Assembly (NCBI GenBank): GCA_016693855.1
Contig: GCA_016693855.1_4844.1
DNA from: a phage
Strand: one strand, 5' to 3'
DNA: 45,498 nt
Each line of letters begins with the position of its first letter. Positions within the stretch are counted from its first letter, which is position 1. Made by a program: the position numbers and the translations under genes. The notes under the pieces were generated by a model. That model saw nothing but the letters and a program-made list of their open reading frames with translations, ran no database searches and had not been told where the DNA came from. Shown here in pieces: positions 2,746 to 44,618 of this stretch.

Positions 2746-2775
2746 AAAAGCCCCTGAATAGGGGCTTTGTTTTAT
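2746..2775. terminator. bidirectional intrinsic terminator
   Basis: aaaAGCCCCTgaatAGGGGCTttgtttt hairpin flanked by A-run and T-run, between convergent genes 2023-2739(+) and 2772-2972(-). Confidence 0.8.
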
Positions 2776-2972
2776 TCTTGTGGTGGCTCTGGTAGTGGCA
2801 TCCAGTGAGTCACGTACTTACCATAGTGATTCCAGAATGGCTTTCCCCCATCATCAGGAACGATGTAATAATCATGCTGAACTGCGTTATTCAACGTTTC
2901 ATACACCAGGAACTCCTTATCCGTATACCCATCACCAGGAAGCATCTCACCACACTTAATCCACTGGCTCAT
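2772..2972 (-). CDS. small moron protein, DUF551-like (tentative)
   Basis: 66 aa minus-strand ORF inside the plus-strand tail module; Trp-rich C-terminus …THWMPLPEPP resembles small prophage proteins of DUF551 type as I recall them; not verified. Confidence 0.4.
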   Translation of the reverse strand: MSQWIKCGEMLPGDGYTDKEFLVYETLNNAVQHDYYIVPDDGGKPFWNHYGKYVTHWMPLPEPPQE

Positions 2973-3108
2973 ATCACCTTGTCCTCATCAAAAATAACAC
3001 CAATCACACGAAGTAAGTCTTTCGCCATTCTCTCTGCTTCTTCGTAATCGTAACCTGCATCAACATACAGTTCAGTGTAGAAAATCAGGTCTGCTTTTGT
3101 TTGTTCGT

Positions 3109-3303
3109 TCATTTCTTGTCGCCACTGTTAACTAATGCCCAAACAAGTGCTGCAACCCAACCAATAAAGCTCCATCCGACAAGAATATTCAATACACAGA
3201 TTGCGGTCGTATTTGTGTGCTTTCTTTGCAATGCCACAAATGATGGTAGAAGATAAACAAATATAACCAATCCAGCGAAAAGCAACAAAATAACAACATC
3301 CAT
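3109..3303 (-). CDS. superinfection immunity-like small membrane protein
   Basis: 64 aa from ATG at 3303 (GAGG 8 nt upstream); two hydrophobic segments and the motif NILVGWSFIGWVAALVWAL, which matches my recollection of the Imm_superinfect family signature (GWxxxGWxxALxWA). Confidence 0.55.
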   Translation of the reverse strand: MDVVILLLFAGLVIFVYLLPSFVALQRKHTNTTAICVLNILVGWSFIGWVAALVWALVNSGDKK

Positions 3304-3334
3304 AACCAACCTCATTCATATCTCGTTTCGATGA

Positions 3335-3387
3335 CTTGAATCTACATCACCGCCTCGCAGGTGTCAACACCACTGAGATGATATAAT
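3335..3387 (+). promoter_or_regulatory. promoter region with AATCTACATCA motif, GTCAACACC and extended -10 TGATATAAT
   Basis: Motif at 3339-3349; TGATATAAT at 3379-3387; ~20-30 nt upstream of the tail chaperone start; divergent from the minus-strand morons. Confidence 0.5.
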
Positions 3388-15416: not shown

Positions 15417-15428
15417 AATCTACATCAA
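15417..15428 (-). promoter_or_regulatory. TTGATGTAGATT motif copy (minus-strand orientation) upstream of nuclease gene
   Basis: Plus strand reads AATCTACATCAA at 15417-15428; same motif as at seven other intergenic sites. Confidence 0.4.
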
Positions 15429-15850
15429 CCCAAATCAAAAGGCAAGCCAAAATAGAAAAGTGTGGCTTTTTTTAGTTCGTCAAGACCGTAAGCGATGGCA
15501 GCATAATGACCAAGCCTGCACATCTCAGTTAACACAGCGGATTGCTCTTTGCTAACCCTGCTTTTGCTTTTATCGCGGCGCTTTGCTTCAATCATCCCGC
15601 AACTGTGATTTACTCCCGGCGTCATTATCACATTGTCGCCTATTCCAGTCTTAACCCCCATTTTCTGGCGCTTCAGCACAAACTGCACCCTGCTTGATGT
15701 GCCAGTTTCGTTGGGTACATGAAACCACAGAACATCAGGGAAGCGGTGTTGCATCCATGTACCGTAACCCATCTGATCAGTCTCCTCTTTCGGGCATTCT
15801 CCGCGATAACCGCTATCAAATACCCATATGCCGCTATCAAGCTGCTTCAC
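15425..15850 (-). CDS. VRR-NUC domain nuclease
   Basis: 141 aa; …GIGDNVIMTPGVNHSCGMIEAKRRDKSKSRVSKEQ… fits the VRR-NUC (PD-(D/E)xK) pattern of a hydrophobic strand-Asp followed by ExK and a downstream Q. Confidence 0.65.
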   Translation of the reverse strand: MKQLDSGIWVFDSGYRGECPKEETDQMGYGTWMQHRFPDVLWFHVPNETGTSSRVQFVLKRQKMGVKTGIGDNVIMTPGVNHSCGMIEAKRRDKSKSRVSKEQSAVLTEMCRLGHYAAIAYGLDELKKATLFYFGLPFDLG

Positions 15851-17771
15851 TTTGTTCTCCTGTAAAATCTTTTCTGTGGATTATGTCACGGCCTTTATCG
15901 TTGATACGATGCGTGATGCGTTTTGGCGCCTTAATCAATCCCGCATACATCATGAATTGCTTGGCGTTCTGGCATTTCAGGATTTTCCCGGCCATTGACT
16001 TATCATCAAGGTGAGGAAAGATAGCCTTCGCCTTAAACATGTTTTTCATGTGAGTTGCGCCGCCATAAGGGTAGAAAACCTCATTAGCCCATCCTTCTTT
16101 GCCATCACAACGATTAATCCAGTATCGATACAAAACCCCTTCCCCGTCCTTCGTTAACTGAACCTTGAAATCCATAACATCAGCCCACTCATTATCGGTA
16201 TACGCACGCTCATTAAGCGCCGCATTAGGGTCACGCAAAACATGATCGCAATGTCGGCAATAACGCGCAGTAGGGTCGTTTTTAGTACCACATCCATCAT
16301 CAAAAATACGTATTCCATGCTTATCGAAACCGCAACGGATGTAACTGAAAAACTCCTCGCAGCGACCATCTGGAGATACCGGGTCTTTCCCTATGCATCG
16401 ACGCGCATATGGGCTGTTCATTGTTCCACATTTTGGACACGGAACCTGTTCGCCACTGCGTTTTGAACGTTGCGCTTCAGCCTCTTCCAGAATTGGGTCT
16501 TCATACAGCTGACCAAGCTCAAACATCGTGCCTGAGAAATCCAGAACAAGATGGTCTTCTTTATGATACCCTGCATCAATTTGCTCTTTCTTCAGCAGGC
16601 GCATCCCGCGACCAAGCAACTGAACAAGAAGGGTGAGCGACATTATTTTTCTTAATATCACGCTTGTATCCCAAAGCGGGATGTTGACTCCTGTCGTAAG
16701 CGCGGCTATCTGGAATGTGTATTTTATTTTTCCAGTGTATGCATCCTTTAGTGCCTTACGTCTTGCTTTTTTCCCCATATCTTCAGTGACAATGGCGTAG
16801 CTTCCTTCTGGCAGATATTTAGCAGCTTCTAAACAATGCTTCTTGCCTGCACAGGTAATTAACACTCCATTTCTATCTTTTGTAAGCTCCATCACTTTAA
16901 GCATGATTTTCTGTGTGAGAGTGCCTTGTTCAAGTATTTCTTCCTGCATCTGCTTAAGTTGTTCAGCAGTGAAATCCTGCGTTCCGTCAACATCAGAGCC
17001 ATGAAATGATGAAAGGTCGTATTGCAAATCATCAACATCATGAAGTCCAAAGATTGTTGGAACAACAAATCCGCGATCTACCATGTACTTTGTGTCAATG
17101 TTTATTATTTCATTCTTCCAATACGCACCTTTCATTGACTCGGTGCCACGGAAAGGGCTTCCAGTGAATCCGATAGTTATCATGTCATGTCCATACTTTG
17201 CCTTACAGCGCCGATTTAACTCGGTCAGTATAACGCCATACTGTGTTGTTGGTTCACCACCGACAATGTCCTGCCACGGTACTTGGTGCCCTTCATCGCA
17301 AAGGCAAAATCTTGGGGTGAAATCACTCAACCCACCTTTCTTAACGTCACCATTTGATTCATCTTTTTTATCAAAAAGTGCGTTCACGATTGTTCCTTCA
17401 GTGCCGCATATAATAGGATATGCTGTGCTTTTCCTGCCAAGAGATGCACTATAAAGAGAGTTTTTTACACCGCACTCCCACATCATTTCAGCATTCTGCT
17501 CGGCTATTTCCCCCTGCCTTGAAATTACAAGACCATCCCACCACATATCCTGAAATCTACTGCAAAGCATTGAAATCATCACCGTCTTCCCTGATGAAAC
17601 CGACGCTGTAACATAGCTTGGTTCAGGTTTCTTGCCAAAATTACGAATAACCTCAGCGCACTTTGCGTAAACAAGCCATTGGTAATCATATGGCTCTATG
17701 GAGCCTAGTTTTATTGATTTCTTTAATTTATCTATATCAATCTCTGAAATCATCTTGTCTATTTTATGCAT
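15837..17771 (-). CDS. SF2 DNA helicase with C-terminal zinc-ribbon region
   Basis: 644 aa; Walker A-like …ASVSSGKTV…, DExH-like …LCDEGHQ…, and C-terminal Cys clusters CPKCG…C and CRHCDH. Confidence 0.8.
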   Translation of the reverse strand: MHKIDKMISEIDIDKLKKSIKLGSIEPYDYQWLVYAKCAEVIRNFGKKPEPSYVTASVSSGKTVMISMLCSRFQDMWWDGLVISRQGEIAEQNAEMMWECGVKNSLYSASLGRKSTAYPIICGTEGTIVNALFDKKDESNGDVKKGGLSDFTPRFCLCDEGHQVPWQDIVGGEPTTQYGVILTELNRRCKAKYGHDMITIGFTGSPFRGTESMKGAYWKNEIINIDTKYMVDRGFVVPTIFGLHDVDDLQYDLSSFHGSDVDGTQDFTAEQLKQMQEEILEQGTLTQKIMLKVMELTKDRNGVLITCAGKKHCLEAAKYLPEGSYAIVTEDMGKKARRKALKDAYTGKIKYTFQIAALTTGVNIPLWDTSVILRKIMSLTLLVQLLGRGMRLLKKEQIDAGYHKEDHLVLDFSGTMFELGQLYEDPILEEAEAQRSKRSGEQVPCPKCGTMNSPYARRCIGKDPVSPDGRCEEFFSYIRCGFDKHGIRIFDDGCGTKNDPTARYCRHCDHVLRDPNAALNERAYTDNEWADVMDFKVQLTKDGEGVLYRYWINRCDGKEGWANEVFYPYGGATHMKNMFKAKAIFPHLDDKSMAGKILKCQNAKQFMMYAGLIKAPKRITHRINDKGRDIIHRKDFTGEQSEAA

Positions 17772-18292
17772 TATTTTACCCTACCAAATTCACCATGATA
17801 CTTTTTTGATGCTTCTGCATAAACCTTTGCTGCTTCTTCTTTTGTATCATATCTTCCTAGCCATATTTTTTTATTATTTACATGTATAGAGCAAGTCCAT
17901 TTTTTTGTTTGCTTGCAAAAACCAACACCCTTTACACCAGAGGTGTTATGGCTTGGAATCCTCATGTTTCTTAAGTTTCCATTAAAGTTTGTTTCTCTTA
18001 GGTTTTCTATCCTGTTATTCAATCTATTTCCATCTTTATGGTCTATTATTAACTCAGGCCAATAACCATGCACTAAAGCCCATATTATTCTGTGAACCTT
18101 TATATCAACACCTAAAAAACCAACCTGAAGATATCCACTTACAGTCTTCGAACCTGCAATAGCGCCACGTTTAACCCTGTTTGTTGTTGTTCTTTTCCAT
18201 ATGAGATTTATTCCGTCATATGAAAAATACTCCCGCAACGTAGATACTGGTATTGACTTCTCTTTTAACTTCATTAATTCGAAATCATTCAC
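17771..18292 (-). CDS. HNH homing endonuclease with AP2-like DNA-binding domain
   Basis: …HRIIWALVHGYWPELIIDHKDGNRLNNRIENLRE… HNH motif followed by …SGVKGVGFCKQTKKWTCSI…LGRYDTKEEAAKVY… AP2-type domain; free-standing, immediately upstream of the helicase. Confidence 0.85.
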   Translation of the reverse strand: MNDFELMKLKEKSIPVSTLREYFSYDGINLIWKRTTTNRVKRGAIAGSKTVSGYLQVGFLGVDIKVHRIIWALVHGYWPELIIDHKDGNRLNNRIENLRETNFNGNLRNMRIPSHNTSGVKGVGFCKQTKKWTCSIHVNNKKIWLGRYDTKEEAAKVYAEASKKYHGEFGRVK

Positions 18293-22268: not shown

Positions 22269-22297
22269 TTGACGTAGAATTGTTATTGATGTAGATT
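22269..22297 (+). promoter_or_regulatory. early rightward promoter: TTGACG-N17-TAGATT built from two tandem TTGAYGTAGAWT motif copies
   Basis: TTGACGTAGAAT at 22269-22280 and TTGATGTAGATT at 22286-22297; the TTGACG of copy 1 and TAGATT of copy 2 are spaced 17 nt apart like sigma70 -35/-10 elements; ~30 nt upstream of the first rightward ORF. Confidence 0.5.
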
Positions 22298-27223: not shown

Positions 27224-27262
27224 TGACCAATCTACACCGAGCGCATAGTATAATCTACATCA
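27224..27262 (+). promoter_or_regulatory. promoter: TTGACC-N(16-19)-TAGTATAAT overlapping two AATCTACA(C/T)C motif copies
   Basis: TTGACC 27224-27229, AATCTACACC 27229-27238, TATAAT 27249-27254, AATCTACATCA 27252-27262; ~20 nt upstream of ATG 27283. Confidence 0.5.
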
Positions 27263-31535: not shown

Positions 31536-31775
31536 TCATTTCCACGTTTCACTTTTAAATTGGTATCCGCCAGTGCATTCTCGGCATTGAAATTCAGTCC
31601 TTCCATCGCCATATGGGTCAATCATTCCGGTGCCATTACATTTAGGGCAAATTCGCGCATCACCATCAATAACAGCTTGATGAATCTTTGCCGCGCACTG
31701 GTCAGTAAACACATTGCCATCAGATGTCTTCCAGTGTGTTATAGCAATATTTATTTGCTCAGGAAACATAATCAA
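31536..31775 (-). CDS. small zinc-ribbon protein
   Basis: 79 aa; two CxxC pairs (…CPKCNGTG…CRECTGG…); last gene of a minus-strand operon. Confidence 0.45.
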   Translation of the reverse strand: MIMFPEQINIAITHWKTSDGNVFTDQCAAKIHQAVIDGDARICPKCNGTGMIDPYGDGRTEFQCRECTGGYQFKSETWK

Positions 31776-32383
31776 TCCTCCAGTTTCACGCCGGGAATCT
31801 TGCCTGCTGCGATGGCGTCGTAGATAATTTCGTATTCGCTATAAATCCAGTTGTTGCCCTCATCAGCCTCTCTCTGCATTGCCTCTATTGCTGCATCACG
31901 CTTCCCTCCCGCTTCGGATTGGAGTGGTCGGAATTCCCACATTTTTGAATCAAGAGCAGTTGATACTCCGTTACCCCAGAAACCAAACACATGACCGTCA
32001 CAAACAGCAACAACCTTGAATTTATTCCAGTCAACTTGTGAAAATTGCTTACTTTCACATTCGCACCCCACTGGCGGGACGCCTTCGCCGTTCCATGCTG
32101 GCTTTCGCGATAAGGCGAGTGCGGATTCGTATTGGTCACGGGTAACTATTGCTGAGTTGCAATCGTCTGCAATATCATTCTTTCCTTCGAAGAAAATCCA
32201 TTTGCTATTATCGTTGCGGTTATCGCTGTCAACAAACCACCATGACTTACCGCCATTTTTCACCGGCCCTCCAGTGAAAAAATAAAACTTGCTATCGTCA
32301 GCATCCTGAACCACTGACTCAGCACCTTCAGGCCACCCGCCACGCTTAGTTAATTCACGCAATAACAGGTCGATAAGTTTCAT
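31772..32383 (-). CDS. hypothetical protein
   Basis: 203 aa ORF, Trp/Gly-rich, ATGA-coupled to neighbours; no motif recognised. Confidence 0.5.
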   Translation of the reverse strand: MKLIDLLLRELTKRGGWPEGAESVVQDADDSKFYFFTGGPVKNGGKSWWFVDSDNRNDNSKWIFFEGKNDIADDCNSAIVTRDQYESALALSRKPAWNGEGVPPVGCECESKQFSQVDWNKFKVVAVCDGHVFGFWGNGVSTALDSKMWEFRPLQSEAGGKRDAAIEAMQREADEGNNWIYSEYEIIYDAIAAGKIPGVKLED

Positions 32384-32604
32384 TTTGTTTCTCCATCAAA
32401 AAGGATTTCTTTGTATTCATCACTAACTTCATATGCCTTATTTAGTTCGAATACCTCATATGAGTTTTGACCACCTTCGCGCCATGAGTGTTTGTCATTT
32501 AGCTTTGCTGCAACATCATCAGCTTCATGCTTGTGCGGATAAACAGCAACGACATTTGATGAGACGCCGCATTCGATACAACCAACATTAAATACAAGCC
32601 ACAT
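32380..32604 (-). CDS. hypothetical protein
   Basis: 74 aa ORF with CxxC (…GCIECG…). Confidence 0.4.
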   Translation of the reverse strand: MWLVFNVGCIECGVSSNVVAVYPHKHEADDVAAKLNDKHSWREGGQNSYEVFELNKAYEVSDEYKEILFDGETK

Positions 32605-32606
32605 AA

Positions 32607-32891
32607 TTATTCTCCCAATGCCTTATTAACTGCTGCACGCGCATTATCCAGGGCACGACGCTTGCTTGATGTGGTCCAGACTTTGCCGGAGTGGTCGTCG
32701 TAGATTTCCAGTAGTTTCTGGAGTGCTGATAACAGGTCAGGAGATGCCGCAAGTAAAAACCCATTAGCATCTGCCGTCGATTCATCAAGCCATGATGTGA
32801 CAGTGCAAATGTGTCCATCCCTGTCACCTTCATAAACATTAAATGTCTCATCAAAAAACCACGGCCCCGGCGTACCTTTAAATTCTTCCAT
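32607..32891 (-). CDS. hypothetical protein, paralog of 44205-44531 (FKGTxGPW family)
   Basis: Start taken as ATG 32891 (GAGG RBS 8 nt upstream): MEEFKGTPGPW…LLAASPDLLSALQKLL…; shares N- and C-terminal motifs with the ORF at 44205-44531. Confidence 0.5.
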   Translation of the reverse strand: MEEFKGTPGPWFFDETFNVYEGDRDGHICTVTSWLDESTADANGFLLAASPDLLSALQKLLEIYDDHSGKVWTTSSKRRALDNARAAVNKALGE

Positions 32892-33051
32892 CACCAACCT
32901 CACTTAATATATTCAATAATTTCGCATTCACGCATCTGCACCAGACCAAATGGCGCAACAACCTTGCCGCACGGACGTCAAGGTTGAACACTCCGCAGCG
33001 TCCGTTTTCTTTGAATTTGACCATTACCATGACTTATCCCTCGCTAATAAC

Positions 33052-33109
33052 TTGATGTAGATACTATGCACCACCACTCAATCTACGTCAATAGTCATTG
33101 TGATAGAAT
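33052..33109. promoter_or_regulatory. divergent promoter region with inverted motif pair TTGATGTAGATA ... AATCTACGTCAA and extended -10 TGATAGAAT
   Basis: TTGATGTAGATA at 33052-33063 and AATCTACGTCAA at 33080-33091 form an inverted pair; TGATAGAAT at 33101-33109 precedes the lysis operon; on the minus strand TTGACGTAGATT-N-CATAGT could serve the leftward operon. Confidence 0.5.
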
Positions 33110-34592: not shown

Positions 34593-34715
34593 TTGGTTTG
34601 CTCAGACTCTTCTCGCCGCTTCCACATCTGCTTCAGCTGGAAATAAATATACGCCTCATCGCCATCTTTCGCATTGCGCTCCATTTATTCACACCATGCG
34701 GATGGTTTTGGTGGC

Positions 34716-35024
34716 TCACTCCGCTGGCAATGTTGCTGGCTCATCAATAGATTCCTCAGTCGCAGCTTCAACGATGCGCACCAGCGAACACTCAAGATTC
34801 GGTGCATTGTAATTACCCGCCAGAAACAGAACGCTACCAGTGCTAATCAGCACCTGCTTTGCATTTGCTTGTGACAGGTTCTGTACGATGAATTGCGCTG
34901 TTTCGGTGCCGATTTTCAGCACTGCGCTGCCGTCACTGTTCAGTGATACCAGTTGCGCGGATGTGTCAGCAATATTGGTAAAGTTCGCGTTTCGTTGCGC
35001 GATTGTGATGTCGCAGAATGACAT
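34716..35024 (-). CDS. hypothetical protein
   Basis: 102 aa, last gene of a 3-gene minus-strand operon; no motif recognised. Confidence 0.4.
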   Translation of the reverse strand: MSFCDITIAQRNANFTNIADTSAQLVSLNSDGSAVLKIGTETAQFIVQNLSQANAKQVLISTGSVLFLAGNYNAPNLECSLVRIVEAATEESIDEPATLPAE

Positions 35025-35503
35025 TATTTAATCTCTCCGTTCAGTTCATTAACAATTAACGTCGCATAGCCAGCAATATCTTTCCAGCTATCGTCATATG
35101 TCGGGTTGCCATTCAGGATTCGCCCAATCTTGTGCTGAATCATGTCGAGCGCCTCGCGTTGGCTTGGCGTAAGATTATGCCACCCATCCACCTCGCGCAT
35201 CACATCTTTCAGCTCCTGCATCATTTCAGCACCGTCTTTGAATTTACCATATCGGCTACCGCGTTCGGTGATGAGTCGCTCTGTTGTGTCAGCCTCCGGT
35301 GCGCCAATGCAATCATTCAAATCATCCTCATCGGTGGCTGGTTCACGAAGTGCCACCAAATCAAATAACTCCGCCTTGATGATTTCCGGCTTGGCAGTCC
35401 AGACAGGATGTCCGCATTCCTTATGCAAATACTTATGCGTAGCCTCAGCGTGACCACCAACAAAATCCTTCTCGCAACCTTTTATGTATTTCCACTTTTT
35501 CAT
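35024..35503 (-). CDS. hypothetical protein (weak resemblance to phage nucleotide pyrophosphohydrolase-associated domains)
   Basis: 159 aa; …ERGSRYGKFKDGAEMMQELKDV… and …DSWKDIAGYATLI… are patterns I associate loosely with MazG-related phage proteins; unverified. Confidence 0.4.
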   Translation of the reverse strand: MKKWKYIKGCEKDFVGGHAEATHKYLHKECGHPVWTAKPEIIKAELFDLVALREPATDEDDLNDCIGAPEADTTERLITERGSRYGKFKDGAEMMQELKDVMREVDGWHNLTPSQREALDMIQHKIGRILNGNPTYDDSWKDIAGYATLIVNELNGEIK

Positions 35504-35721: not shown

Positions 35722-35766
35722 TTGACGTTTCTACATCACTTAGTCAATACTTATTGACGTAGATTG
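35722..35766. promoter_or_regulatory. divergent promoter region with TTGACG / TCTACATCA / TTGACGTAGATT motif copies
   Basis: TTGACG 35722-35727, TTTCTACATCA 35728-35738, TTGACGTAGATT 35755-35766; lies between divergent operons (35694 leftward, 35794 rightward). Confidence 0.5.
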
Positions 35767-38386: not shown

Positions 38387-40266
<1,880 letters not shown>

Positions 40267-40268
40267 TA

Positions 40269-41342
40269 ATGGAAAAGATTATCTTTACCAAAGATTTGGT
40301 AGCCAACTCCGCAATAGTGGCTGACCAGTGGAAACATCTCACCATCGACCGCAAGGTGTTCTGCAATGCAGAAGCTGAGCTGGCGAAAACTTACGGTGTT
40401 AACGCCACCGCACTGGTAACAAAAGATTACTGGCGCGACGTGGATAACGTCACTACCCGCGTTTTCCGTAACGAGGCTGGTCAGGACATGATGGCTGACC
40501 TGATGGGTATCGCGGCAAACATCAATATCGGTAAGACCGTGGCAATCAGCCGCATTGCTTCCGATGCTGGTAAGGTCGTCCGCACTCTGTCTGGTCAGGA
40601 GCCGGAAGATTTGGATAAAACTCGCTACGATTACACTGGCGATGTGATTCCAATCTTCAAAACTGGCTACAGCCGCGAATGGCGCGAACTGCTGGGTATG
40701 CAGTCAGAAGGTTTTGACCCACTGCTGGACGATCAGGCTAACGTCACCTTTAACCTGCGTTCCGACATGGCGCAGTATCTGCTGACTGGCGACCAGACTC
40801 TGAACGTGAACGGCGTTTACACTGGTTACGGCATCACTAACCACCCGAACACTGTTCAGGTTAACCTGAGCGTTTCCGGTGGCGGCCCGAATATCGACCT
40901 GCAAACCGCAACGCCAGACGAAATCGTGAAATTCTTCAATCAGGATTTCCAGGCTATTCTGGATGCGCAGAACGTATTTGAGCAGGTGACTCTGTGGGTT
41001 TCTCCGGCAGTGCGTCGCAGCTTCATGCGCCCGTATTCTGATGCGGCTGGCTTCAAAGGCGGCACAATTGAGCAGTACATCACGCAGTTCGGCAATGGTC
41101 GCATCGGCAAGATTGGCACAAACTTCCTGCTGACTGGCAACCATTTCGTTGGCTACGTTCGCAACGACATGTACATCCGTCCGCGTGTTGCTCAGCCTGT
41201 TTCCACCTATGCGGCAGCCCGTGACAATCCGCACGATAACTTTAACTTTATGGTGTGGTCAGCTTTCGGTTTGCAAATTCGTAAGGATTTCACCGGCAAG
41301 TCAAAAGTGTTCAACGGCTACGGTACGCAAACTCCGCAGTAA
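40269..41342 (+). CDS. major capsid protein (putative)
   Basis: 357 aa; position after scaffold/decoration genes, followed by a strong terminator; size typical of HK97-fold capsid proteins. Confidence 0.6.
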   Translation: MEKIIFTKDLVANSAIVADQWKHLTIDRKVFCNAEAELAKTYGVNATALVTKDYWRDVDNVTTRVFRNEAGQDMMADLMGIAANINIGKTVAISRIASDAGKVVRTLSGQEPEDLDKTRYDYTGDVIPIFKTGYSREWRELLGMQSEGFDPLLDDQANVTFNLRSDMAQYLLTGDQTLNVNGVYTGYGITNHPNTVQVNLSVSGGGPNIDLQTATPDEIVKFFNQDFQAILDAQNVFEQVTLWVSPAVRRSFMRPYSDAAGFKGGTIEQYITQFGNGRIGKIGTNFLLTGNHFVGYVRNDMYIRPRVAQPVSTYAAARDNPHDNFNFMVWSAFGLQIRKDFTGKSKVFNGYGTQTPQ

Positions 41343-42444: not shown

Positions 42445-42474
42445 AAAGAAAAGCCCCGTGAAGGGGCTTTTTAT
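42445..42474. terminator. bidirectional intrinsic terminator
   Basis: aaaagaaAAGCCCCgtgaaGGGGCTTtttatt between convergent 41624-42442 (+) and 42477-43013 (-). Confidence 0.85.
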
Positions 42475-42476
42475 TG

Positions 42477-43013
42477 CTACAGGCGCATCGGCATAACAAC
42501 AATCTTCGCAGTCTCGCCAGATGGCGCACTAAGGCAGCAAACTGCGGCATTTGTATTTCCATTCAGTTCAAATTTGACACCACAGAATTTTGGATTAAAT
42601 AGCTTGGCGCACTTCTCAACATCAGCAAGGTATTTAGCGTTAAATCCGATTTGCTCAGTTGGCGAAGTCTGTTTTGGTATAACGCGATCAATATCAGGGA
42701 ATCGACCGTCAATAATGTTACAGATACCAGCACCTACCATTAACTCTGTATCATCATGGTACGTGACCATTTTTGTTTTGGTATCCAGCACCGCATAATC
42801 ATAGCGCTTAATTGGCGACTTACTGACTGATACAATGACGCTGTCTGTCAGTTTGTTGTCGTGCTTGCCACCAACAAACATCCTATGCCCATCAGTTGAC
42901 GCAACGCGACCATCTGGCATGAAGCAAATACCGTTCAGATAGTAACGCACATCATTCTTTGCCTGAAACATCAATGCGCCTTCGAGTAATAACTTGCTGA
43001 TTTTTAATTTCAT
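42477..43013 (-). CDS. truncated DNA polymerase III beta sliding-clamp (DnaN) homolog
   Basis: 178 aa from ATG 43013 (AAGGTG RBS). Ordered matches to E. coli DnaN as I recall it: FQAKNDVRYYLNG (DnaN ~150), ASTDGHRMF (~172), DGRFPDIDRVIPK (~240-253), IGFNAKYLADV (~325) and the C-terminal …IVVMPMRL (DnaN ends …YVVMPMRL). Domain I and the first half of domain III are absent. Confidence 0.7.
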   Translation of the reverse strand: MKLKISKLLLEGALMFQAKNDVRYYLNGICFMPDGRVASTDGHRMFVGGKHDNKLTDSVIVSVSKSPIKRYDYAVLDTKTKMVTYHDDTELMVGAGICNIIDGRFPDIDRVIPKQTSPTEQIGFNAKYLADVEKCAKLFNPKFCGVKFELNGNTNAAVCCLSAPSGETAKIVVMPMRL

Positions 43014-43186
43014 CACTTCACCTTAATCATATGTTGTTTTGCAACCTTGAGGCACTCTTCAAAAATGCCACCCTTCTTTGCGCTCTGATTGCGCTTGTAA
43101 TACTGAATTGCCGCATCAATTGCCATCTGGTCGATGTCCGTCAGCTTGGCGCGAAGTTGTTTTTCGATGAATTGTTCTGGTGTCAT
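43013..43186 (-). CDS. hypothetical small protein (57 aa)
   Basis: ATG 43186 with AAGGA RBS; stop overlaps the DnaN-like start (TGATG); below ORF-track size cutoff. Confidence 0.35.
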   Translation of the reverse strand: MTPEQFIEKQLRAKLTDIDQMAIDAAIQYYKRNQSAKKGGIFEECLKVAKQHMIKVK

Positions 43187-43398
43187 TGACTTATCCTTGT
43201 GTCGAATTGAGATTTGTAAAACAAATCAATACTTCCCAATGCTTTGTATTCAAATTTCCCATTCTCGCGGCAAACCCACTTCTCAAACCCATAATTGTCA
43301 TTATTTGCCGTCCATGTTGTCACAGAGAAAAAAACCACTAGCCTGGATTATTGCTCCATTACCATCCCTGTCACCGAACTTTATAATTTTGTAACGCA

Positions 43399-44208
43399 TC
43401 ACATCTTTTCCAGAATTGCCATAACCTCGTGAATATCAGCAACAGGAATCTGGATAAACTCCTCATCCTCTGCCACCACATGACCAGCAGGTAGAATCAC
43501 ATGGTCTGCTGGCTTCAATAACTCGATCAGGCGGTCTACTGGCTTAATCTTTTTCGACTTCAGCACTTTGGCTGTGACCTTGTCCTTGCCTTGTGCTTTG
43601 GCCTCTTCGACTGCCTCGTCGATAACTTTAACCGCATCATCGCCATGTTCACGCGTTACTGCTACGGCATTTGCATAGCTGATTTGTCCTGCACTGATGC
43701 GCGCTTTTACTTCTGCTGGCACATCACCCAGCGACAGGTGCATTTGCACGTCAGATACTGAGCGGCCTACCTTCTTGGCGATTTCTTCATTTGTCCAGCC
43801 AAATCCTTTCAATCGCGTGTAAGCCTTTGCACGCTCAAACGGGTCAAGCTGCTTGCCCTGACTGGATGACACCATGAAGGCGATTTTGTCCGCCTCGTCG
43901 CCAGTGAAATCCTTGCACTCAATGCGAACGATTGGTGCGCCGCGTTCAATGGCTCGTAGTGCACCAAGATAGCGATGCTGACCATCAAGAATGCGGATTC
44001 CTTTGTCGTCAGGGATAACTGTTAATGCTGGCAATGGCTGACCTGATTCCCAGCACTGAGCGAAATATTCAACGTGTTGCTCATCTGCTTCACGGATGTT
44101 ATATCCCGGCTCCAGATAGATTCGCTCCACTGGCACGAGATAGGTTTTGTTAACAGCAATACCGTTGCGCGTTTCTTTGTCTGAATAGATTTTGCTTAGT
44201 GTTTTCAT
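43399..44208 (-). CDS. ParB-like protein (ParB N-terminal nuclease-like domain + HTH)
   Basis: 269 aa; …IRILDGQHRYLGALRA… matches the ParB/Srx-fold arginine-containing box; …FGWTNEEIAKKVGRSVSDVQMHLSL… is HTH-like; no ParA partner in the window. Confidence 0.7.
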   Translation of the reverse strand: MKTLSKIYSDKETRNGIAVNKTYLVPVERIYLEPGYNIREADEQHVEYFAQCWESGQPLPALTVIPDDKGIRILDGQHRYLGALRAIERGAPIVRIECKDFTGDEADKIAFMVSSSQGKQLDPFERAKAYTRLKGFGWTNEEIAKKVGRSVSDVQMHLSLGDVPAEVKARISAGQISYANAVAVTREHGDDAVKVIDEAVEEAKAQGKDKVTAKVLKSKKIKPVDRLIELLKPADHVILPAGHVVAEDEEFIQIPVADIHEVMAILEKM

Positions 44209-44531
44209 TGTTTCTTTCCTAATGCTTTCTTGATAGATTCTTCAGCTAACAGCAATTCTTCTGGGTATTGCTCATTCCAGTTTTGTTTGTATGCCTTGCC
44301 AAGCATTTTTTGCAGAGCTTCAAGCAACTCAGGTGCTGCGGCTATTAACTTTGCATTTGCACGCGTTTCATCAGCCTCTCTGGCATGAACATTTTCATAA
44401 ACAGGTGTTAATACATTTGCCACCTTATATCGATGACCAATAATTGCGCCTCTGATTCTGATGTATGGCTTATCTACTTCTTCTGGTAAAACCTGCCACG
44501 GACCTTTTGTACCTTTGAATTCATCTTTCAT
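44205..44531 (-). CDS. hypothetical protein, paralog of 32607-32891 (FKGTxGPW family)
   Basis: Start taken as ATG 44531 (GAGGTGAG RBS): MKDEFKGTKGPW…LIAAAPELLEALQKML…; first gene of the leftward operon that ends with the DnaN-like gene. Confidence 0.5.
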   Translation of the reverse strand: MKDEFKGTKGPWQVLPEEVDKPYIRIRGAIIGHRYKVANVLTPVYENVHAREADETRANAKLIAAAPELLEALQKMLGKAYKQNWNEQYPEELLLAEESIKKALGKKQ

Positions 44532-44557
44532 ATCACTCACCTCTAACATTTATTGTT

Positions 44558-44618
44558 GTTTCTACGTCACTAACTATAAACGCACCATCAATCTACGTCA
44601 ACAGGAATGTGCTAAAAT
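44558..44618. promoter_or_regulatory. divergent promoter region with TTTCTACGTCA and AATCTACGTCAA motif copies and extended -10 TGCTAAAAT
   Basis: Motif copies at 44558-44570 and 44590-44601; TGCTAAAAT at 44610-44618 ahead of a 39-aa basic ORF (44649-44768). Confidence 0.5.

Follow-up and report, generated by a model that had tools for sequence, protein, structure and literature searches.

The leftward island inside the structural region is a single early-type operon of a virulent Skatevirus-like siphovirus, with a predicted promoter carrying paired TGAYGTAGA sites. The operon is compact, runs antisense to the structural genes and has its own promoter and terminator. Overall, we read it as a conserved operon in which a ParB/KorB-like regulator is combined with an accessory "mini-clamp", a pocket module for host clamp-binding proteins, and give this reading a probability of roughly 0.55. 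The mini-clamp itself is a reduced but true homologue of the beta sliding clamp of bacteria. Positions below refer to the window, i.e. the whole stretch of 45,498 nucleotides of phage DNA that was analysed, and the features are:

44573..44601, minus strand: sigma70-like promoter TTGACG-17-TATAGT, from a consensus scan (10/12 positions)
44592..44600, minus strand: TGACGTAGA site 1, core of TTGACGTAGATT, overlapping the -35 element
44561..44569, minus strand: TGACGTAGA site 2, direct repeat of site 1, located 31 bp downstream of it
42477-44549, minus strand: leftward island of five minus-strand ORFs
44205..44531, minus strand: gene 1, FKGTKGPW protein, 108 aa (ORF 44205-44549; ATG 44531 the likely start)
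43399..44208, minus strand: gene 2, ParB/KorB-like HTH protein, 269 aa
43183..43399, minus strand: gene 3, 71 aa, frameshifted, aligned with IME207 gp50
43328..43334, minus strand: T7 homopolymer (A7 on the plus strand) with an extra base, T6 in phage IME207
43013..43186, minus strand: gene 4, p57, basic 57-aa protein, PHROG 4439
42477..43013, minus strand: gene 5, mini-clamp, 178 aa from its ATG, DnaN-derived
42449..42471, no strand assigned: bidirectional intrinsic terminator hairpin AAAAGCCCC-GTGAA-GGGGCTTTT, common to the convergent capsid-side genes

The island lies downstream of plus-strand capsid genes (decoration and major capsid proteins, 39799-41342) and is followed by plus-strand membrane and head-tail genes, both flanking sets being syntenic with annotated relatives. 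Stop and start codons overlap (ATGA or TGATG) at all gene junctions of the island, including the ATGA shared by the gene 4 stop and the mini-clamp start, which is compatible with a single transcription unit. The ATG of gene 1 at 44531 is preceded by a GAGGTGA ribosome-binding site and agrees both with homologues of 100-112 aa and with the point at which the preliminary description ended the unit. That description had counted five genes, which holds for four intact genes plus one, the third, that is broken by a +1 frameshift. Gene 3 is split here into ORFs 43301-43402 and 43183-43338, and removing one T from the homopolymer restores its 71-aa ORF; it is rare cargo, with its DNA found in just one other phage of the collection. 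Purifying selection acts on the four intact genes, with dN/dS at 0.07 (ParB-like gene), 0.13 (p57), 0.10 (mini-clamp) and 0.32 (FKGTKGPW gene).

A promoter bearing a genome-wide motif and a bidirectional terminator had been proposed as the two ends of the unit, and both were recovered. The promoter is located ~40 nt 5' of the gene 1 ATG, with the second of its two TGAYGTAGA sites sitting between the -10 element and the ribosome-binding site. The motif as first described, TTGACGTAGATT, has six sites with at most one mismatch (0.19 expected), and TGAYGTAGA, its core, has 11 exact sites in the window (0.62 expected). In nearly all clade loci that were fetched, a pair of these cores with ~30-31 bp spacing stands 5' of the island, and the core recurs in the window and in the relative Bas78 at intergenic sites that are syntenic. 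Such pairs head non-structural units, and the genome's other non-structural transcription units are marked by these sites too; the island is one of several similar leftward units with a common promoter motif. At the distal end, the hairpin stands between an A run and a T run, which makes termination possible both ways, and in phage Skate two terminators are annotated at the same place.

The Skatevirus group, to which the phage belongs, is virulent and has no encoded DNA polymerase; a T1-like assignment was dropped, as the closest records and the BASEL paper point to the Skatevirus cluster. The nine ORFs scanned in the replication/recombination region of the window, among them those for two helicase-type proteins, a primase, SSB, ERF and an exonuclease, contained no DNA polymerase, and none is annotated in Bas78. 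A clamp loader was likewise neither annotated in Bas78 nor seen among the replication-region ORFs scanned. Some carriers of the mini-clamp, such as Kagunavirus and Jerseyvirus, may encode their own polymerase, which would weaken any argument from the lack of a polymerase.

The island was found in 201 records and in all clade loci, where it is clade-wide but mosaic, with the promoter and ParB-like gene constant and the other genes varying. Variable cargo includes the 71-aa gene, the first gene and a methyltransferase; in relatives, the position of gene 1 is taken by DUF551, anti-restriction, EaC or other genes, and an anti-restriction gene, DNA methyltransferases and EaC are carried in the same operon. 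The proposal that the island is a moron fits in part. As in morons, a unit of promoter, gene(s) and terminator lies antisense in the structural region with varying cargo, and the term suits the individual cargo genes as well as the lone mini-clamps found elsewhere, whose insertion in Kagunavirus, Bcep781, Shewanella 1/41 and Proteus RS10pmA is exactly moron-like. It does not suit the whole island: promoter and ParB gene included, this is conserved throughout the clade, and part of it is kept in the smallest viable genome of a relative.

The FKGTKGPW protein is assigned to PHROG 1273 and its homologues carry Pfam PF27050, while the protein itself had no match in Pfam, NCBIfam or PDB. The first gene of the operon in phage seszw is not homologous to it, hence the seszw deletion data described below do not apply to this protein. 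The p57 gene is situated upstream of the mini-clamp in 41/41 clade loci, usually abutting it.

The product of gene 2 had been called ParB-like, and profile and structure searches agree. It matches Pfam PF17762 HTH_ParB (E 2.6e-11; 44 bits, cut-off 22.6) and PF08535 KorB (E 7e-6; 26.3 bits, cut-off 22.3), and with the NCBIfam models parB_part and Noc it stays under the cut-off. Its closest solved structures are Spo0J 1VZ0 (E 5e-13 against the PDB entry), Noc and KorB. The protein thus shares with Spo0J/ParB, Noc and RK2 KorB a ParB HTH, a KorB-domain match and an N-terminal ParB/Srx-type domain that keeps the G..R motif, here with DGQHR instead of GERR. It differs from them in that the canonical CTP-binding motifs GERRxRA and ENxQR are degenerate: the alignment to 1vz0 shows GQHRYLGA for GERRYRAA and SSSQGK for ENLQRE, and (D/E)G(Q/H)(H/R)R and SSxG are the forms kept in the family. 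The protein may bind a nucleotide in some other way. Further differences are the virulent lifestyle of the phage and the missing ParA partner: no ParA is annotated in the complete relative Bas78, and the scanned ORFs of the window showed none. Unlike the palindromes parS and OB, the recurring site TGAYGTAGA lacks such symmetry.

The ParB-like protein is 98-99% identical at the amino acid level across about 137 phage records, and its gene was kept in every genome-reduced seszw record examined. It is full length in 50/50 of the mutant seszw records listed, with two further records showing in-frame 15-aa deletions only, and the smallest seszw genome, grown on a single host, still carries it. From this conservation and retention we infer a DNA-binding regulator or organiser that is hard for the phage to lose, not a plasmid-partition protein. 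The role in segregation put forward in the preliminary description is unlikely given the virulent group, the lack of an annotated ParA in a relative and the degenerate CTP motifs.

The mini-clamp shows significant sequence and fold homology to DnaN, in line with the clamp-derived identity first suggested for it. Its predicted structure, modelled from a deep alignment, is a compact fold (pLDDT 96.8) whose structural matches are all sliding clamps, and a search of BFVD showed this fold to be common to many phage proteins of 180-250 aa. Profile scores point the same way at sub-threshold level (Pfam DNA_pol3_beta_2, 21.4 bits with a cut-off of 27; DNA_pol3_beta_3, 16.7 bits; TIGR00663 dnan, 43 bits with a cut-off of 137), and the N-terminal DnaN Pfam domain gave no match. 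In RefSeq and PHROG 3007 the protein is labelled a RusA-like Holliday junction resolvase. This label was rejected, as no RusA hit was obtained in Pfam (E<=1) or NCBIfam, and it looks like an annotation error.

Compared with E. coli DnaN (PDB 1MMI/2POL), the mini-clamp is 178 instead of 366 aa long, phage-encoded, dispensable and basic rather than acidic (pI 8.85 against 5.25), and it probably forms no ring. A basic pI would also fit direct DNA binding. It consists of DnaN domain II and the C-terminal half of domain III, without domain I. On the most parsimonious alignment DnaN ~254-315, about 60 residues of domain III, are missing, with the exact deletion boundary ambiguous owing to the internal repeat of domain III; the mini-clamp stretch NPKFCGV resembles DnaN 275-281 of the first half-domain. 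Pocket residues (subsites I and II) and interface residues were taken from a review (PMC11139829), in which the DnaN dimer is held by I78/F106 of domain I against I272/L273 of domain III and by ion pairs from K74/R96/R103/R105 to E298-E304. The lost stretch includes the ring-closing I272/L273 and the E298-E304 patch, and with domain I gone both halves of the canonical head-to-tail interface are absent. In the model one channel helix is also lost, the second helix of domain II being replaced by a proline-containing loop.

What the mini-clamp has kept is the pocket that receives clamp-binding motifs, where 16/18 residues are identical to E. coli DnaN. In a family alignment (n = 129), at least 70% conservation was reached at 11/18 pocket positions and at 17/160 other positions (Fisher p 3e-6); such conservation could partly stem from fold constraints inherited from DnaN. 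At 50% identity the family falls into >120 clusters, whose members are 165-220 aa long and have the same shortened architecture, and no paper on it was found in the literature searched.

These data bear on the idea that the mini-clamp is a functionless, decaying fragment of a captured host dnaN. The protein is indeed shorter than DnaN, a Bcep781 homologue is annotated "DNA Pol III beta subunit fragment", and the gene is dispensable in seszw and split in Bas80. However, a dN/dS of 0.10, one shortened architecture held over all these divergent clusters, the compact model and conservation concentrated on the pocket contradict decay, which we consider very improbable.

To place the mini-clamp in other genomes, its loci were searched with a 26-sequence alignment. 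Among distant IMG/VR loci, 31/40 have it directly upstream of an O-type initiator, a DnaB-type helicase or an SF2 helicase, and in Hafnia phage yong1 the order is cII, mini-clamp, replication genes. Elsewhere it occurs as a lone antisense insertion in structural operons; lone mini-clamps with no ParB-like neighbour are found in Kagunavirus, Dhillonvirus, Bcep781, Shewanella and Proteus phages. Dispensability was read from deposited genome-reduced mutants of the relative seszw: the viable mutants 220S, 250L and 300L.2 are without genes 16 and 17 (mini-clamp and p57) and retain genes 18 and 19. Moreover, the Bas80 mini-clamp is split into ORFs of 56 and 120 aa. The mini-clamp is thus an accessory fitness factor that is dispensable on the laboratory host, and is not required for recruitment of the host polymerase.

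It had been proposed from their co-transcription that the ParB-like protein and the mini-clamp form one functional module, which would make them a single DNA-loading or partition-like machine in phage DNA replication or segregation. In keeping with this, the genes are tightly packed and predicted to be co-transcribed, the two are co-located in about 40 clade loci, and the order ParB-like gene, mini-clamp, SF2 helicase recurs in two distant lineages (L051 and L054), the helicase being homologous to the 644-aa helicase of the window. Outside the clade the pairing largely dissolves, however: a ParB-like neighbour related to that of the window lies near the mini-clamp in only 3/40 distant carriers, and 37/40 have none within 5 kb. 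The two proteins also evolve at unequal rates (amino acid identity of 98-99% for the ParB-like protein and 77-85% for the mini-clamp), and the seszw mutants lose the mini-clamp and p57 while keeping the ParB gene. Being mostly unlinked elsewhere and separately deleted, the two do not constitute one obligate machine; together with the split gene of Bas80, the unannotated ParA and the degenerate CTP motifs, this makes the single machine a decidedly unlikely explanation. The part of the proposal that stands is a replication link for the clamp derivative, by its context in other phages.

Could the mini-clamp nevertheless ride on DNA, as a processivity or transcription factor tethering host Pol III or RNA polymerase to the phage genome? 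T4 gp45 and Mu C are precedents for RNA polymerase tethering. Four copies with three half-domains each would supply the 12 units of a clamp ring, or the protein could act without a ring in the manner of UL42/UL44. The herpesvirus proteins UL42, UL44, PF-8 and BMRF1 have the clamp fold and no closed trimeric ring, although the likeness is one of principle only, with no detectable sequence relationship; they have two complete domains and serve the virus's own polymerase, in eukaryotic viruses. We regard a DNA-riding factor as unlikely, as both ring-interface halves are missing, the second channel helix of domain II has given way to a loop, no clamp loader was seen among the ORFs scanned and the mini-clamp gene is dispensable.

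Most likely, the mini-clamp serves in an accessory way, as adaptor or decoy towards clamp-binding proteins of the host. Predicted to be unable to close the canonical beta2 ring, it would act as a free pocket module for the clamp-binding motifs of host replisome and repair proteins, with Pol III alpha/epsilon, clamp-loader delta, Hda, MutS/L, translesion polymerases and RecBCD as candidate ligands. It may either tether such partners to the phage replication machinery or titrate them off the host clamp. A search of the window proteins for clamp-binding motifs gave no strict match, which makes host proteins the likely ligands. Two loose matches (one in a capsid protein and QMHLSL in the ParB HTH) were discarded as meaningless, since they fall below a rough chance estimate of ~ten.

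Other phage proteins reach the same host machinery by different means. N4 gp8 acts against the clamp-loader delta subunit. Twort Gp168, seen bound to the beta clamp in PDB 7EVP, binds the host clamp. Both are unrelated in fold to the mini-clamp, which differs from them in being a clamp derivative itself, which would compete for or capture the partners of the clamp.

A counter-defence role of the island is possible. In its full form this reading makes the island mainly a counter-defence cassette, whose ParB/Srx-type protein and mini-clamp neutralise or evade host immunity. The anti-restriction, DNA methyltransferase and EaC genes in the same operon of relatives would fit, as would a mosaic content typical of accessory islands and a mini-clamp that is dispensable on the laboratory host. 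RecBCD is reported to use a clamp-binding motif for its binding to the beta clamp (bioRxiv 10.1101/2025.08.20.671105), which would make it a possible target of a pocket decoy. Yet no protein of the module significantly matches an anti-defence-annotated family in Pfam, PHROGs or NCBIfam, and the main context of the mini-clamp elsewhere is a replication module. Retention of the ParB gene in the smallest single-host genome argues against a purely host-specific accessory role for that protein. As the island's main function, counter-defence is therefore improbable.

Extending the adaptor or decoy reading to the family, we tentatively suggest that the 165-220-aa phage genes annotated as "DNA polymerase III beta subunit" and spread over many phage lineages are a distinct, ring-incompetent, pocket-only class of host-takeover proteins, which would capture clamp-binding motifs in the replisome or repair proteins of the host and so work as decoys or as adaptors to phage helicases; the extreme variant of this idea would be a D2-symmetric tetrameric ring of 12 half-domains.

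The analysis corrects the widespread RefSeq "RusA-like Holliday junction resolvase" label, and distinguishes between a dispensable cargo gene and a ParB/KorB-like gene kept in the smallest viable genome of a relative. The common promoter/operator motif may mark out the early regulon in Skatevirus-type phages, a group under development for therapy and genome minimisation. The beta clamp's pocket acts as a main hub of bacterial replication and repair and an antibiotic target, and a large phage family keeping only the pocket would be a natural, evolution-tested reagent against this hub. It could reveal which partners of the clamp it matters most for a phage to capture or disable, and could account for the coupling of host Pol III to phage helicases in phages without a polymerase; it could also give a minimal soluble scaffold for pocket-ligand screening.

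Five minus-strand ORFs, flanked by plus-strand capsid genes and by plus-strand membrane and head-tail genes, form a genuine operon of the early type, which occupies a conserved accessory locus. Stop and start codons overlap at every gene junction, and purifying selection acts on the four intact genes (dN/dS 0.07 to 0.32). This confirms the preliminary description of a five-gene unit with its own promoter and bidirectional terminator, except that one of the five genes is broken.

Features of the island
44601-44573, minus strand: promoter, TTGACG-17-TATAGT
44205-44549, minus strand: gene 1, FKGTKGPW protein, 108 aa, likely start ATG at 44531, GAGGTGA ribosome-binding site
43399-44208, minus strand: gene 2, ParB-like protein, 269 aa
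43183-43399, minus strand: gene 3, 71 aa, split by an additional T in a homopolymer run
43013-43186, minus strand: gene 4, 57-aa protein (p57)
42477-43013, minus strand: gene 5, clamp-like protein (mini-clamp), 178 aa
42449-42471: hairpin with an A run on one side and a T run on the other, terminating in both directions

The window is the genome of a small siphovirus whose nearest relatives (~88% nucleotide identity) are Salmonella, Escherichia and Klebsiella phages, e.g. IME207, swi2, Sf11 and Skate, grouped in the BASEL study as "Skatevirus and relatives" (PMC11990801). A T1-like affiliation was rejected, as the closest records and the BASEL grouping both point to this virulent group. The third gene of the island has a run of seven Ts (43328-43334) vs six in IME207, and removing one T restores the 71-aa ORF; either the homopolymer was mis-sequenced or the gene has recently become a pseudogene. 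Identity to IME207 across this stretch is ~97–98% vs ~88% in the surrounding region, suggesting that it was recently exchanged, and the gene is present in just one other phage of the collection.

Among relatives the promoter and ParB-like gene are constant, the ParB-like protein being 98–99% identical across about 137 records. The first gene differs by relative (FKGTKGPW protein, DUF551, anti-restriction protein, EaC and others), small genes are gained and lost, and several relatives carry a DNA methyltransferase inserted 3′ of the ParB-like gene. FKGTKGPW homologues carry the precomputed Pfam family PF27050, which also occurs on 536 kb and 284 kb contigs of Enterobacter and other enterobacteria, probably prophage locations. 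Identity of the clamp-like protein among relatives is just 77–85%. The p57 gene lies upstream of it, mostly abutting, in 41 of 41 island loci from the group. In Bas80 the annotation splits the mini-clamp (1534-2070 of locus L010) into two hypothetical ORFs (56 and 120 aa). Each matches the mini-clamp PHROG, so either the gene is disrupted in Bas80 or its sequence is in error.

The island shares its upstream signal with other transcription units. The motif TTGACGTAGATT has six sites at ≤1 mismatch in the window (0.19 expected), and exact matches to its core, TGAYGTAGA, number 11 (0.62 expected), at 3341-3349, 15419-15427, 22270-22295, 27254-27262, 33053-33090, 35730-35763 and 44561-44600. Most of these form pairs, direct or inverted, that head non-structural transcription units. 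Bas78, a relative, has 13 sites (0.41 expected) syntenic with those of the window, including at other leftward gene groups inside the structural region. A pair spaced by 30–31 bp is found directly upstream of the island in nearly all clade loci fetched, irrespective of which gene comes first, and was absent from the distant mini-clamp loci fetched. Conservation upstream of the island and synteny elsewhere place the island in a shared regulon, which is probably early, and TGAYGTAGA looks like a common early promoter or operator of the Skatevirus group. Other leftward groups within the rightward structural and lysis region lie at about 2750-3340, 31770-33080 and 34710-35500, all on the minus strand, and in Bas78 at genes 0014-0017, 0022-0026 and 0059-0061; some are headed by TGAYGTAGA, and the island is one of a set.

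The ParB-like protein combines a ParB HTH domain with a KorB-domain match, its nearest solved relatives being Spo0J, Noc and KorB. Its N-terminal domain retains the (D/E)G(Q/H)(H/R)R motif; unlike in ParB, GERR and ENxQR are replaced, and the protein scores under both the ParB and the Noc cut-off of NCBIfam. The annotation of a relative lists no ParA. With these motifs replaced, no annotated ParA and a virulent phage group, a partition role, as in the segregation proposed earlier, is unlikely. Our best guess is a KorB-like regulator or DNA organiser, with the TGAYGTAGA sites possibly its targets.

Evidence on which genes are needed comes from seszw, a Skatevirus that underwent CRISPR-based iterative genome reduction (PMC9825161), and whose ParB-like protein and mini-clamp are 99% and 81% identical to those of the window. 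Wild-type genes 16–19 are the mini-clamp, p57, ParB-like gene and first gene. Genes 16 and 17 were lost, and 18 and 19 kept, in the viable mutants 220S, 250L and 300L.2, the last being the smallest (36.6 kb; 52 annotated features vs 81 in wild type). This makes the mini-clamp and p57 non-essential on the laboratory host, as the authors define the term (PMC9825161). The ParB-like gene was full length in all 50 mutant records listed, just a handful of which held the complete mini-clamp/p57 segment. Two mutants (proteins P0396, P0397; record MZ375305) carry 15-aa in-frame deletions in the ParB-like protein, one of residues 55–69, immediately before the DGQHR motif, the other of residues 160–174, immediately after the HTH. 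The gene was retained despite these deletions, so both stretches are dispensable. We infer that this is the pattern expected when Cas9 targets a needed gene; in seszw the ParB-like gene behaves like an essential or near-essential gene.

Sequence comparison identifies the mini-clamp as a genuine homologue of the bacterial beta clamp. It matches E. coli DnaN over residues 136–289 (phmmer, E 4e-13), with a second stretch at 316–366 ending in an identical VVMPMRL, and a profile of 129 family members matches stretches 136–303 and 313–366 (E 3e-28). The label "RusA-like Holliday junction resolvase", which passed from PHROG 3007 to RefSeq records of relatives (e.g. NC_031924 gp47), was rejected, as every match, by sequence or by fold, is to a sliding clamp. 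On the simplest reading of the alignment, the protein would consist of DnaN domain II and the C-terminal half of domain III, lacking domain I and DnaN residues ~254–315; because domain III is internally repeated, the exact limits of the deletion are ambiguous. With these segments the ring-closing interface would lose both of its sides, namely I78/F106 plus the basic residues in domain I, and I272/L273 plus E298–E304 in domain III (interface and pocket residues as listed in PMC11139829). In the predicted structure a proline-containing loop replaces the second channel helix of domain II, and the protein is basic (pI 8.85 vs 5.25 for DnaN). That it nonetheless forms a ring is a less likely alternative. 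The hydrophobic pocket for clamp-binding motifs is retained, the window protein sharing 16 of its 18 residues (subsites I and II) with E. coli DnaN. In the family as a whole, 11 of 18 pocket positions are conserved at ≥70% vs 17 of 160 others (Fisher p 3e-6), the rest of the pocket showing mostly conservative substitutions. A motif search found no strict clamp-binding motif in the window proteins.

An exhaustive search returned >120 clusters (50% identity) of 165–220-aa proteins of this architecture, which outscore full-length DnaN, and in BFVD many phage proteins of 180–250 aa share the fold. The phage collection holds 280 records with a match, from Salmonella, Escherichia, Vibrio, Klebsiella, Serratia, Burkholderia, Proteus and other phages. 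Lambdoid temperate phages have the order cII, mini-clamp, O-type initiator, then DnaB-type helicase. Two distant lineages (L051 and L054) have a ParB-like gene, mini-clamp and SF2 helicase in succession, the helicase being homologous to the 644-aa zinc-ribbon SF2 helicase of the window (15837-17771, minus strand; 26% identity, E 4e-28); this order suggests an ancestral replication module split up in the Skatevirus group. In a third context a lone antisense mini-clamp sits in head/tail gene clusters (Kagunavirus, Bcep781, Shewanella 1/41, Proteus RS10pmA). In Dhillonvirus it is antisense within the head gene cluster and follows an Nmad5 gene (nucleotide modification associated domain 5, E 7e-56), as in 'rolling' (L003, 3174-3938), where Nmad5 is directly upstream. 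In a sample of 40 distant IMG/VR loci, biased toward relatives of the query, an initiator or helicase was immediately downstream of the mini-clamp in 31, and a ParB-like gene related to that of the window occurred in just three. The proposal that the ParB-like protein and the clamp act as a single machine was not borne out.

In the window phage, nine ORFs of the replication/recombination region were scanned. They yielded two helicase-type proteins, a primase, SSB, ERF and an exonuclease, and no DNA polymerase, which is likewise missing from the Bas78 annotation. Between the helicase and primase genes (17771-18292, minus strand) lies a fusion of an HNH endonuclease with an AP2 DNA-binding domain, probably a homing endonuclease. 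The mini-clamp's association with replication modules and the absence of a polymerase among the ORFs scanned favour a replication-linked role for it, and its dispensability marks it as accessory; counter-defence is a less likely alternative. Most likely, the mini-clamp would act as a free pocket module that takes up clamp-binding motifs on host proteins, serving as a decoy or linking those proteins to the phage replication machinery as an adaptor. The family has long been annotated as "DNA polymerase III beta subunit" or "fragment", e.g. in Bcep781, and our literature search found no study of it. What is new is its architecture, with the pocket retained and the ring interface gone, and the breadth and genomic context of the family.
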